Shown here: in pieces, positions 10,630 to 23,698 of the stretch
Numbering within the stretch: position 1 is the stretch's first letter
How the letters are laid out: each line of letters opens with the position of its first letter
Assembly: GCF_046105845.1 (NCBI RefSeq)
Contig: NZ_CP151004.1
Strand: one strand, 5' to 3'
DNA: 64,000 bases
Source of the DNA: Escherichia coli
GTDB lineage: Bacteria > Pseudomonadota > Gammaproteobacteria > Enterobacterales > Enterobacteriaceae
The notes under the pieces: model-generated
Database searches by the model: none
What the model was told of the DNA's origin: nothing
Seen by the model: only the letters and a program-made list of their open reading frames with translations
Position numbers and translations under genes: made by a program

Positions 10630-14694
<4,065 letters not shown>

Positions 14695-14840
14695 TGTTAT
14701 CCCTCTGAAGTTCGTTTTTTACCATTTAGCCATAGTAAAAATATGAATTGTTTGATTTCGCGCATATTCGCTCATAATTCGAAAGTGAAACGTGATTCCA
14801 TGCGTCATTCTGAACATTTAACCCATCGTATTTAATAATG

Positions 14841-14856
14841 TGTGCGGTAATTCACA
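14841..14856. promoter_or_regulatory. CRP-binding site in the glpACB/glpTQ divergent control region
   Basis: TGTGC-GGTAAT-TCACA, a near-consensus TGTGA-N6-TCACA. Confidence 0.6.
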
Positions 14857-14966
14857 TTTAATTTATGAATGTTTTCTTAACATCGCGGCAACTCAAGAAA
14901 CGGCAGGTTCTCCCACTGAATCAGGCTGTTAATCATAAATAAGACCACGGGCCACGGAGGCTTTCA

Positions 14967-16325
14967 ATGTTGAGTATTTTTAAACCAGCGCCACACAAAG
15001 CGCGCTTACCTGCCGCGGAGATCGATCCGACTTATCGTCGATTGCGTTGGCAAATTTTCCTGGGGATATTCTTTGGTTATGCTGCTTACTATTTGGTTCG
15101 TAAGAACTTTGCCCTCGCTATGCCTTATCTGGTCGAGCAGGGCTTCTCACGCGGTGATTTAGGTTTTGCCCTTTCGGGGATCTCGATCGCTTATGGATTT
15201 TCGAAATTCATCATGGGCTCGGTGTCGGATCGCTCGAATCCGCGCGTTTTCCTGCCCGCAGGTTTGATTCTGGCGGCGGCAGTGATGTTGTTTATGGGCT
15301 TTGTGCCGTGGGCGACGTCGAGCATCGCGGTGATGTTTGTACTGTTGTTCCTCTGCGGTTGGTTCCAGGGGATGGGGTGGCCGCCGTGTGGTCGTACTAT
15401 GGTGCACTGGTGGTCGCAGAAAGAACGTGGCGGCATTGTGTCAGTGTGGAACTGTGCACACAACGTCGGTGGTGGTATTCCGCCGCTGCTGTTCCTGCTG
15501 GGGATGGCCTGGTTCAATGACTGGCACGCGGCGCTCTATATGCCCGCTTTCTGCGCCATTCTGGTGGCACTGTTCGCCTTTGCGATGATGCGCGATACCC
15601 CGCAATCTTGTGGCCTGCCGCCGATCGAAGAGTACAAAAATGATTATCCGGACGACTATAACGAAAAAGCGGAACAGGAGCTGACGGCGAAGCAAATCTT
15701 CATGCAGTACGTGCTGCCGAACAAATTGCTGTGGTACATCGCTATCGCCAACGTGTTCGTTTATCTGCTGCGTTACGGCATCCTCGACTGGTCACCGACT
15801 TATCTGAAAGAGGTGAAACACTTCGCGCTGGATAAATCCTCCTGGGCCTACTTCTTCTATGAGTATGCGGGCATTCCGGGCACCCTGCTGTGCGGCTGGA
15901 TGTCGGATAAAGTCTTCCGTGGCAACCGTGGGGCCACCGGCGTCTTCTTTATGACACTGGTGACCATCGCGACTATCGTTTACTGGATGAACCCGGCAGG
16001 TAACCCAACCGTAGATATGATTTGTATGATTGTTATCGGCTTCCTGATCTACGGCCCTGTGATGCTGATCGGTCTGCATGCGCTGGAACTGGCACCGAAA
16101 AAAGCGGCAGGTACGGCAGCGGGCTTTACCGGGCTGTTTGGTTACCTGGGCGGTTCGGTGGCGGCGAGCGCGATTGTTGGCTACACAGTGGACTTCTTCG
16201 GCTGGGATGGCGGCTTTATGGTAATGATTGGCGGCAGCATTCTGGCGGTTATCTTGTTGATTGTTGTGATGATTGGCGAAAAACGTCGCCATCAGGAATT
16301 ACTGCAAAAACGCAACGGAGGCTAA
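14967..16325 (+). CDS. glpT: Glycerol-3-phosphate:phosphate antiporter (MFS)
   Basis: 452 aa, 12-TM MFS protein; N-terminus [31 protein letters not shown]. Confidence 0.95.
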
Positions 16326-16329
16326 TGGC

Positions 16330-17406
16330 ATGAAATTGACGCTGAAAAACCTTAGCATGGCGATCATGATGAGTGGAATGATCATGGGAAGCAGTGCAAT
16401 GGCGGCGGACAGCAACGAAAAAATAGTCATCGCCCATCGCGGTGCCAGTGGATATTTGCCGGAGCATACGCTGCCAGCAAAAGCGATGGCGTATGCGCAG
16501 GGAGCGGATTATCTGGAACAAGATTTAGTGATGACGAAGGATGACCATCTGGTTGTTCTGCATGACCATTATCTCGATCGTGTTACTGATGTTGCCGATC
16601 GTTTCCCGGATCGGGCGCGCAAAGACGGTCGTTACTACGCGATAGATTTCACGCTCGATGAAATTAAGTCACTGAAATTTACCGAAGGTTTCGATATTGA
16701 AAATGGTAAGAAAGTACAGACTTATCCGGGGCGTTTCCCGATGGGTAAATCTGACTTCCGGGTACACACTTTCGAGGAAGAGATTGAATTTGTTCAGGGG
16801 TTAAATCACTCTACCGGGAAAAATATCGGTATCTATCCAGAAATTAAAGCGCCGTGGTTCCATCATCAGGAAGGGAAGGATATTGCGGCAAAAACGCTGG
16901 AAGTGCTGAAGAAATATGGTTACAGCGGTAAGGACGACAAAGTTTATTTGCAATGTTTTGATGCCGATGAACTGAAGCGTATTAAGAATGAGCTGGAACC
17001 TAAAATGGGCATGGACCTCAATCTGGTACAGCTGATTGCCTATACCGACTGGAACGAAACTCAGCAGAAACAGCCGGACGGAAGCTGGGTTAATTACAAC
17101 TACGACTGGATGTTTAAGCCGGGGGCCATGAAACAGGTGGCGGAATATGCTGATGGTATTGGTCCGGATTATCATATGTTGATTGAGGAGACATCGCAGC
17201 CAGGTAATATCAAACTCACTGGCATGGTGCAAGATGCTCAGCAGAACAAGCTGGTAGTGCATCCTTATACCGTGCGGTCAGATAAACTGCCTGAATACAC
17301 TACTGATGTGAATCAGTTATATGATGCTCTGTATAACAAAGCGGGTGTAAATGGGCTGTTTACTGATTTCCCTGATAAGGCAGTAAAATTCCTTAATAAA
17401 GAGTAA
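16330..17406 (+). CDS. glpQ: Periplasmic glycerophosphodiester phosphodiesterase
   Basis: ATG at 16330 gives 358 aa with signal peptide; GP-PDE motif HRGASGYLPEHT. Confidence 0.93.
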   Translation: MKLTLKNLSMAIMMSGMIMGSSAMAADSNEKIVIAHRGASGYLPEHTLPAKAMAYAQGADYLEQDLVMTKDDHLVVLHDHYLDRVTDVADRFPDRARKDGRYYAIDFTLDEIKSLKFTEGFDIENGKKVQTYPGRFPMGKSDFRVHTFEEEIEFVQGLNHSTGKNIGIYPEIKAPWFHHQEGKDIAAKTLEVLKKYGYSGKDDKVYLQCFDADELKRIKNELEPKMGMDLNLVQLIAYTDWNETQQKQPDGSWVNYNYDWMFKPGAMKQVAEYADGIGPDYHMLIEETSQPGNIKLTGMVQDAQQNKLVVHPYTVRSDKLPEYTTDVNQLYDALYNKAGVNGLFTDFPDKAVKFLNKE

Positions 17407-22167: not shown

Positions 22168-22422
22168 TCACAACTCGATTTCAATATCGCCTTTTGCCCG
22201 GCAACAACAGGGCAAAATTTCCCCCGGCTGAATAAAGGCTAACGGTTCGGCAATCCAGTCCACCTGGCCTGCAACAAGGCGCGTGCGACAGGAACCGCAG
22301 TAACCTTCGCGGCACTGGTACTCAACCGCCACATTGTGGGATTCCAGCGCCGCCAGAAGGGAAGGGTGTTCATCCTGGCACAGCAGTTGTGTGCCAGTGA
22401 TGCGCAGGGTAACGCGAGCCAT
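22168..22422 (-). CDS. yfaE: 2Fe-2S ferredoxin YfaE (NrdB diferric-tyrosyl cofactor maintenance)
   Basis: 84 aa; cysteine motif CREGYCGSCR; start overlaps nrdB stop (TGATG). Confidence 0.9.
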   Translation of the reverse strand: MARVTLRITGTQLLCQDEHPSLLAALESHNVAVEYQCREGYCGSCRTRLVAGQVDWIAEPLAFIQPGEILPCCCRAKGDIEIEL

Positions 22423-23552
22423 CAGAGCTGGAAGTTACTCAAATCGTCGGTGTCCACTTCCGAGTCAATCTGCCCGACCAGATAAGAACTGACTTCCACT
22501 TCCTGCGGAGCAACCTGCACGTTATCAGACACCAGCCAGGTATTGATCCACGGGATCGGGTTGGAGCGTGTCTGGAACGGCAGATCCAAACCGACTGCCT
22601 GCATACGGATATTGGTGATGTATTCAACGTACTGGCAGAGAATGTCTTTATTCAGACCAATCATCGAACCGTCACGGAACAGATAATCCGCCCAGTCTTT
22701 CTCTTGCTGTGCCGCCTGGACAAACAGGTCATAGCTCTCCTGCTTACATTCTTCGGCAATTTCCGCCATCTCCGGATCATCCGCACCGCTGCGCAGCAGA
22801 TTCAGCATATGCTGAGTACCGGTCAGGTGCAGGGCTTCGTCGCGGGCAATCAGGCGAATAATTTTGGCGTTACCTTCCATCAGTTCGCGTTCTGCAAAGG
22901 CAAAGGAACAAGCAAAGCTGACGTAGAAGCGGATCGCTTCCAGCGCGTTAACGCTCATCAGGCAGAGATACAGTTTTTTCTTCAGCTCGCGCAGGCTAAC
23001 GGTTACGGTTTTACCGTTAACGGTGTGGGTACCTTCGCCCAGCAGATGCCAGTAGCTGGTCATTTCGATCAGCTCATCGTAATAGCTGGAGATCCCTTCC
23101 GCACGTTTCTGGATCTGCTCGTTGGTGACGATATCATCAAACACAACGGACGGATCGTTAACGATATTACGAATGATATGGGTATAAGAACGAGAGTGAA
23201 TGGTTTCTGAGAACGCCCAGGTTTCGACCCAGGTTTCCAGTTCAGGGATCGAGATCAGCGGCAGCAGTGCCACGTTCGGGCTGCGACCCTGAATGGAGTC
23301 CAGCAACGTCTGATATTTCAGGTTGCTGATAAAGATGTGTTTTTCGTGTTCAGGCAGTGCCTGGTAATCGATACGGTCACGAGAAACGTCAACTTCTTCC
23401 GGACGCCAGAAGAAAGAGAGCTGCTTTTCGATCAGCTTTTCGAAGATGTCATATTTTTGCTGATCGTAGCGAGCCACGTTGACCGGCTGACCAAAGAACA
23501 TCGGTTCTTTCAGCTGATCATTTTTCGTCTGTGAAAAGGTGGTATATGCCAT
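22422..23552 (-). CDS. nrdB: Ribonucleoside-diphosphate reductase 1 beta subunit
   Basis: ATG at 23552 gives 376 aa ([22 protein letters not shown]...); the track ORF extends 5' into the REP region. Confidence 0.95.
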
Positions 23553-23575
23553 GAATGTGTCCTGTTGGGAGTTTA

Positions 23576-23690
23576 ATGCCGGATAAGGCATTTTACGCCG
23601 CATCCTGTGCCTGATGCGACGCTGGCGCGTCTTATCAGGCCTACAAATCCGAGCCGTAGGCCAGATAAGGCGTTCACGCCGCATCCGGCA
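23576..23690. repeat. REP/BIME cluster in the nrdA-nrdB intergenic region
   Basis: Inverted GCCGGATAAGGCxxxxACGCCGCATCCGGC-type units (REP consensus), at least two copies. Confidence 0.75.
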
Positions 23691-23698
23691 TCTCAAAA

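Follow-up and report, generated by a model that had tools for sequence, protein, structure and literature searches.

How are two back-to-back operons, one for glycerol-3-phosphate uptake (glpTQ) and one for its anaerobic oxidation (glpACB), controlled from the short stretch of DNA that separates them, and where within that stretch do their activators and their shared repressor sit? The glpT-glpA divergent promoter region is already known and well studied and, as a textbook pair of divergent promoters with a shared repressor and global activators, carries little weight as a discovery. Fosfomycin uptake is set by glpT expression, which gives the region some practical relevance. We analyzed it in a 64,000-nucleotide stretch of Escherichia coli DNA, referred to below as the window.

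Gene content and layout of the glpA-glpT intergenic region

In the open reading frame (ORF) list, positions 14695..14966 span exactly the 272-bp gap that separates the start codon of glpA, on the minus strand, from that of glpT (14967), on the plus strand. The gap is bordered by the following features:

13066..14694, minus strand: glpA coding sequence, from the ORF list; NCBIfam equivalog NF008313, 1108.8 bits
14967..16325, plus strand: glpT coding sequence, glycerol-3-phosphate:phosphate antiporter, from the ORF list; NCBIfam equivalog NF008433, 976.4 bits
14701..14705, minus strand: glpA Shine-Dalgarno sequence GAGGG, 6 nt before the ATG; plus-strand CCCTC/TCCTC is kept in the alignment
14956..14960, plus strand: glpT Shine-Dalgarno sequence GGAGG, 6 nt before the ATG at 14967, read from the sequence

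GlpB and GlpC are encoded downstream of glpA and GlpQ downstream of glpT, with all five proteins identified by NCBIfam equivalog models. The same DNA occurs, at 90-99% identity, in 5419 of 5426 complete E. coli genomes, with RefSeq-annotated glpA and glpT on its two sides. An earlier note, made from the letters of the window, had called 14695-14966 the glpACB/glpTQ divergent control region; this label is correct, because the ORFs, the NCBIfam models, the RefSeq annotation and a gapless alignment to K-12 all agree. Taken together, these data make it highly probable that the region is an E. coli-type glpTQ-glpACB divergent control region, with two back-to-back activator-dependent promoters and one shared repressor. 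An Rfam scan of 14500..15200 gave no match near threshold. The sequence around the glpT Shine-Dalgarno, GCCACGGAGGCT (14950..14962), is near-invariant over 33 genera, beyond what ribosome binding alone would need.

For comparisons across species, a GlpT scan of one genome per species yielded 80 loci, 54 of which have glpA divergently upstream. The intergenic alignment covers 33 genera; FNR-box spacing was counted over 52 loci, and CRP cores and half-sites over 54. Dinucleotide shuffles of the 272-bp region served as the chance background, and the array statistic described below was also compared with 272-bp windows across the 64 kb.

The CRP site and the glpT promoter

The CRP core consensus is TGTGA-N6-TCACA, and a class II activator is centered at -41.5, with the -10 element at -12..-7. 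Upstream of glpT, we identified these features:

14837..14858 (core 14841..14856, center 14848.5), no strand assigned: CRP site AATGTGTGCGGTAATTCACATT, near -41.5 of glpT, from sequence, conservation and a footprint in EHEC
14878..14883, plus strand: glpT -10 hexamer TAACAT, from its 29.5-bp spacing to the CRP center; the block is kept in the alignment
14888..14890, plus strand: predicted glpT transcription start, at 14888 by the numbering of PMC5352689 and at 14890 by canonical class II geometry
14788..14809 (GTGA at 14792-95, center 14798.5), no strand assigned: candidate second CRP or FNR half-site AAACGTGATTCCATGCGTCATT, read from the sequence

The CRP core TGTGCGGTAATTCACA (14841..14856, TGTGC-N6-TCACA) matches the consensus at nine of ten positions. 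Taken alone, such a match is weak evidence, because cores with at most one mismatch are not rare across the 64 kb (3 observed against 1.66 expected). Within the 272-bp region, only 0.67% of dinucleotide shuffles hold a core of this kind (P = 0.0067), and one is found in 44 of the 54 related loci. The center of the site (14848.5) lies 29.5 bp from the start of the glpT -10 hexamer (14878), which is class II geometry, and a TAnn[AC]T hexamer starts exactly 29.5 bp past the CRP center in most Enterobacteriaceae loci with an intergenic region of ~234-276 bp.

Kurabayashi et al. 2017 (PMC5352689) reported a CRP-cAMP DNase I footprint on DNA upstream of glpT from EHEC O157:H7, which extends over -30..-52 and protects AATGTGTGCGGCAATTCACATT; the primers for their probe match window positions 14667..14966. 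The EHEC CRP 22-mer differs from that of the window at a single spacer base, with T in the window for C at 14848, and glpT expression was undetectable in EHEC crp and cyaA mutants (PMC5352689). The near-consensus CRP site that had been read by eye at 14841..14856 is thus borne out by its 9/10 core, its low local chance probability, its presence in 44 of 54 loci and the EHEC footprint. Judged by its sequence, the glpT promoter is a class II CRP promoter, with a consensus-like site centered near -41.5 of the predicted start and overlapping the -35 position. Bound over this position, CRP would act as a class II activator and bring RNA polymerase to the weak -10 element TAACAT.

The candidate half-site at 14788..14809 is located 50 bp from the main CRP site, and ACGTGATTTCATGCG within this stretch is kept in the alignment. 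A review citing Larson 1992 states that CRP recognizes several sites in this region (PMC4790336).

An FNR box and a predicted class II promoter for glpA

FNR recognizes the consensus TTGAT-N4-ATCAA. An FNR box that was absent from the earlier note lies on the glpA side of the region, together with the elements of a promoter:

14752..14765 (center 14758.5), no strand assigned: FNR box TTGAT-TTCG-CGCAT, at -41.5 of the predicted glpA start; the identical motif lies in the EHEC FNR(D154A) footprint
14724..14732, minus strand: glpA extended -10 element TGGCTAAAT (hexamer CTAAAT, 14729 to 14724), 22 nt after the FNR box, in a conserved block
14717, minus strand: predicted glpA transcription start, 7 nt past the -10 hexamer, with the center of the FNR box 41.5 bp away

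The box matches the consensus at seven of ten positions in the window and is one mismatch from it (TTGTT-N4-ATCAA or similar) in 24 of 52 loci, mostly from distant genera. The block CATTTAGCCA, which holds the glpA extended -10 element, is the most conserved in the whole intergenic alignment. In 50 of the 52 loci, TGn and a hexamer in the direction of glpA come exactly 22 nt after the FNR box, the hexamer being CTAAAT in 31, and in distant genera the distance from the box to glpT varies by hundreds of bases while that to the glpA -10 element is constant. Because the 22-nt spacing to a TGn-extended -10 element is conserved while the distance to glpT varies, we infer that glpA has a class II FNR promoter with an extended -10 element and a start near 14717. 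The supplementary orthologue table of Kim et al. 2012 gives no measured start for glpA or glpT.

A 70-bp FNR(D154A) DNase I footprint on the EHEC DNA starts 32 bp upstream of the CRP site and contains TTGAT-TTCG-CGCAT at -123..-136 of glpT, and glpT expression was enhanced by FNR; the site was read solely relative to glpT, with glpA not mentioned (PMC5352689). The motif is identical in EHEC O157:H7 and in the window; the conserved 22-nt spacing described here indicates that its proximal target is glpA. In the supplements of Myers et al. 2013 (PMC3688515), glpABC is FNR-activated in one data column of the operon table, and the table for the hns/stpA mutant includes an FNR ChIP peak at glpT/glpA. 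FNR bound at 14752..14765, 41.5 bp upstream of the predicted start near 14717, would provide anaerobic class II activation of glpA and, according to the literature, would also enhance glpT.

These assignments can be read differently. The CRP site at 14841..14856 could be a chance palindrome, or could serve glpA instead of glpT. One-mismatch cores are indeed not rare genome-wide (3 against 1.66 expected in 64 kb), but a local chance probability of 0.0067, retention of the core in 44 of 54 loci, with a constant 29.5-bp spacing to the glpT -10 element in Enterobacteriaceae, the CRP-cAMP footprint on the site and the abolished glpT expression of crp and cyaA mutants (PMC5352689) make chance hardly credible, and at ~131 bp from the predicted glpA start the site is too far away to activate glpA directly. 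A role of the FNR box mainly as a distal glpT enhancer acting from about -130, and not as the proximal class II site of glpA, is more plausible than this but still improbable. It would fit the FNR-dependent enhancement of glpT and the numbering of the box at -123..-136 relative to that gene, without mention of glpA (PMC5352689). Against it stand the exact 22-nt spacing towards the glpA extended -10 element in 50 of 52 loci, including genera with 300-600-bp intergenic regions, and the listing of glpABC as FNR-activated (PMC3688515); moreover, the roles of the box as glpT enhancer and glpA activator are compatible with each other. We thus favor FNR as the proximal activator of glpA and CRP as that of glpT.

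A simple sigma-70 scan recovered neither of the real promoters, which is expected because both are activator-dependent; its sole match, TGAACA-17-AATAAT (14811..14839), is at chance level (1 against 0.8 expected). An IHF core search gave just one relaxed match, at 14919..14931.

GlpR-type half-sites in the window

GlpR is a DeoR-family repressor that is released by glycerol-3-phosphate. Its operator consensus, which we take to be the 20-bp palindrome WATGTTCGWTAWCGAACATW, is found at 20/20 positions upstream of K-12 glpD (TATGTTCGATAACGAACATT), where a second unit follows in register, and glpF also has tandem units. The consensus string and six operator sequences gave no full-text literature match. 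A position weight matrix (PWM) for the 10-bp half-site was trained on the K-12 glpD and glpF operator units only; half-sites were counted in the region at a threshold of at least 5 bits, and conserved positions across genera were scored at a threshold of at least 4 bits, with 40% of genera needed for listing. The GlpR-type elements discussed below are:

14707..14726, no strand assigned: GlpR-operator-like 20-mer GAAGTTCGTTTTTTACCATT, 14/20 to the consensus, spanning the predicted glpA start from +11 to -10
14747..14798, no strand assigned: tandem array of five GlpR-type half-sites at 10-11 bp spacing, covering -31 to -82 of glpA
14747-56: array unit ATTGTTTGAT, from the GlpR half-site PWM
14757-66: array unit TATGCGCGAA, read on the minus strand
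14767-76: array unit TATGAGCGAA, read on the minus strand
14778-87: array unit CACTTTCGAA, read on the minus strand
14789-98: weak array unit
14809..14818, plus strand: the earlier note's example half-site TCTGAACATT, 7/10 to AWCGAACATW, below 4 bits

As single sites, these sequences do not stand out. A scan with the 20-mer consensus gave no match at three or fewer mismatches, and exact CGAACAT is absent from the region; with one mismatch, the word occurs three times (14708-14, 14764-70 and 14811-17), against 1.19 expected (P = 0.12). Likewise, the region holds four half-sites of at least 5 bits compared with 4.6 expected from shuffles (P = 0.69), and the enrichment of half-sites over the density of the whole window is therefore an effect of composition. 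The best inverted 20-mer, at 14747..14766, scored 12.65 bits (P = 0.02; 15/20 to the consensus) and overlaps the FNR box. By the GlpR PWM it ranks 8th in the 64 kb, where the top match lies inside a coding ORF. This top match, ACGGATCGTTAACGATATTA (23150..23169, 17.4 bits), falls within a 424-aa ORF (22422..23696, minus strand) and is most likely a chance match that illustrates the poor specificity of the PWM.

The arrangement of the half-sites gave a different result. The best run of half-sites starts at 14747 and proceeds in steps of 10, 10, 11 and 11 bp, which is unusual compared with dinucleotide shuffles (P = 0.007 for four units, P = 0.002 for five), and just 0.6% of the 272-bp windows in the 64 kb attain its score. 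The array from 14747 consists of tandem units in a 10- or 20-bp register over a promoter. Position 14707 is exactly 40 bp from 14747, and the left half of the 20-mer that starts there (14707..14726) scored 7.2 bits. The operators of glpD and glpFK are of the same type, being built of 10-bp half-sites (WATGTTCGWT) in head to tail or inverted pairs that keep a 10- or 20-bp register and overlap the promoter. However, glpD has a perfect 20/20 palindrome, compared with 15/20 for the best unit of the window and 6-8/10 per half for most of its units, and the window has three consecutive units in the same orientation, which makes them direct and not inverted repeats.

The proposal of CGAACAT-type GlpR half-sites made in the earlier note thus holds in part: the words themselves (P = 0.12) and the PWM count (P = 0.69) are at chance, while the tandem array (P = 0.002-0.007) is not. 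The PWM scan against background that it had suggested divides in the same manner, with a plain hit count at P = 0.69, a best inverted 20-mer at P = 0.02 and the array at P = 0.002-0.007. The specific half-site offered there as an example, at about 14808..14820, could not be upheld. It maps to 14809..14818, scored below 4 bits, does not fall in the register of the array and is absent from the PWM positions conserved across the 33 genera; its TGAACAT is kept in Escherichia, Citrobacter and just a handful of further genera. The GlpR signal, as read from the sequence, is located at 14707..14726 and 14747..14798, over the predicted glpA promoter, and not at 14809..14818. Where operators are degenerate and arranged in tandem, as for GlpR, simply counting PWM hits does not set them apart from a composition-matched background, while tests that take account of architecture and phylogeny succeed; a further lesson is that a top-scoring "operator" can be the site of another factor.

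Conservation of the half-sites and published evidence for GlpR

Across the 54 loci there are 452 half-site matches compared with 264 expected from shuffles, although these loci are kin and their counts are thus not independent; 25 loci are individually significant, and Escherichia is among the weakest. Half-sites of at least 4 bits occur at 14707-16 in 73% of the 33 genera, at 14747-56 in 97%, at 14757-66 in 73%, at 14767-76 in 88%, at 14778-87 in 61% and at 14789-98 in 45%. The words TGTTCG, GTTCGT and TTCGWT are enriched 2.7- to 5.5-fold over shuffles across the loci, and units in distant genera read TGTTCGTT, TTTGTTCGTT, TATGTTCGAA and similar, which is close to the perfect glpD palindrome.

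Part of this conservation has another explanation. The homologue of the 20-mer 14747..14766 in distant genera (e.g., TTGATAAGGAACAA) keeps the FNR half-sites and has neither of the CG dinucleotides of the GlpR consensus. Because the FNR box lies inside this 20-mer and its distant homologues keep the FNR half-sites only, part of its score and conservation belongs to FNR, and since the 70-bp FNR footprint spans the same array, part of the conservation of the array could also serve FNR. The units at 14767-87 and 14707-16 carry the case for GlpR because they lie outside the FNR box and yet are conserved.

In the secondary literature, GlpR is described as binding four operators between the two genes and as forming a loop (PMC2946308, PMC4790336). 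In the Reg-Seq paper, 9 of 17 RegulonDB GlpR sites differ from the consensus at nine or more positions, a divergence in keeping with the low scores of single sites in the window.

In 64% of genera, the left half of the main CRP site (14839-48) reaches the 4-bit threshold for a GlpR half-site, and the CRP site as a whole (14839..14858) matches the GlpR 20-mer consensus at 14/20 positions. ArcA direct repeats were considered as a reading of the tandem units and set aside, since the units have a CG core (TTCGWT) and not TGTTA. GlpR operators inside glpA were reportedly described by Larson in 1992 and Yang in 1997 as acting through looping. Third-codon-position conservation and a cross-species PWM scan revealed no conserved position for such internal operators across 54 glpA sequences, the best internal candidate being 14301..14320 at 9.25 bits.

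An NsrR ChIP-seq peak has been mapped to the glpT/glpA intergenic region of UPEC CFT073, with a candidate half-site AACATGAATTG that corresponds to window 14740..14750 (PMC5320621). A C>T change of the window at 14742, unseen in six compared alleles, falls inside this candidate half-site.

Could the GlpR-like half-sites instead be chance matches in AT-rich promoter DNA, or sites of other proteins (FNR, a second CRP, NsrR, ArcA), with GlpR acting elsewhere or weakly here? The plain PWM hit count (P = 0.69) and the CGAACAT-like words (P = 0.12) would agree with this, as would the coincidence of the best GlpR-like 20-mer with the FNR box, the 70-bp FNR(D154A) footprint that lies over the array (PMC5352689), the UPEC NsrR ChIP peak with candidate half-sites in the region (PMC5320621) and the poor specificity of a single-site PWM whose top match falls in a coding ORF. 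We nevertheless consider this explanation very unlikely, given the tandem-array statistic (P = 0.002-0.007), the conservation in 33 genera of half-site positions outside the FNR box (14767-87 and 14707-16), the resemblance of distant-genus units such as TGTTCGTT to the perfect glpD palindrome and the four GlpR operators that the secondary literature places in the intergenic region (PMC2946308). Binding of GlpR to the tandem half-sites over the glpA promoter is the reading that we follow below.

A model for repression of both promoters

GlpR most likely binds degenerate 10-bp half-sites in tandem at 14747..14798, over the FNR box and the glpA -35 position, and at 14707..14726, over the glpA start. 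Bound there, between about +11 and -82 of the glpA promoter, it would exclude both RNA polymerase and FNR, and from the same sites it would repress glpT at a distance of roughly 90-180 bp. With its half-sites over the glpA promoter, GlpR is thus predicted to block glpA directly and to repress glpT remotely. Here we infer both the choice of half-sites that GlpR occupies and looping.

A more specific version of this model is tentative, and we regard it as improbable: the FNR box would also be the first unit of the GlpR array in a single composite element of the glpA promoter, FNR and GlpR would compete directly for 14747..14766, and repression of glpT would act from afar only. Separately and just as tentatively, the decay in Escherichia of the 21-bp element at 14819..14839 (see below) suggests that the input of a regulator between the two promoters was lost or rewired.

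Comparison with K-12 and other E. coli alleles

The glpTQ-glpACB control region of K-12 is among the closest known systems (Larson, Cantwell & van Loo-Bhattacharya 1992, J Biol Chem 267:6114; Yang, Gerhardt & Larson 1997, Mol Microbiol 24:511). Compared with K-12 MG1655, the intergenic region of the window has the same flanking genes and the same length of 272 bp, and it aligns without gaps at 260/272 identical positions. The 12 substitutions leave the core bases of the CRP site, the FNR box, both -10 elements and both Shine-Dalgarno sequences unchanged. Nine of the 12 are common to other natural E. coli alleles, including those at 14820-24 plus 14828, 14810, 14848 and 14913. The cluster at 14820-24 plus 14828 (AACCC..G against TGTAA..T) is a natural allele that 118UI and ST131, among other strains, also carry; the example half-site is altered by the change at 14810 and reads TTTGAACATT in K-12. 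The substitution at 14963 is common to O157, and neither 14742 C>T nor 14798 T>C is in any of six compared alleles. With the CRP and FNR sites intact, the strain from which the window comes should express glpT normally.

Among complete E. coli genomes, none matches the intergenic region fully, the closest being 98.9% identical, and the best match to glpCBA-glpTQ (10630..17406) among 5426 complete E. coli genomes is 98.7% identical. Since none of these genomes exceeds 98.7% over the glp locus, the source lineage is not closely represented among them. One E. coli contig record is 91.5% identical to the window at the glp locus.

Further conserved elements between the promoters

In Citrobacter, Klebsiella, Enterobacter and many other genera, the sequence corresponding to 14819..14839 is a near-invariant 21-mer, TTGTCATAwwwnTGTAACAAT. 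The same element is degenerate and polymorphic in Escherichia, reading AACCCATCG in the window and TGTAAATCT in K-12.

On the glpA side, many genera have a perfect inverted repeat, CCACA-N7-TGTGG, that separates the FNR box from the extended -10 element at the position of 14730..14746. This inverted repeat may be a site for a further regulator; in the window, it reads CCATA-N7-TATGA.
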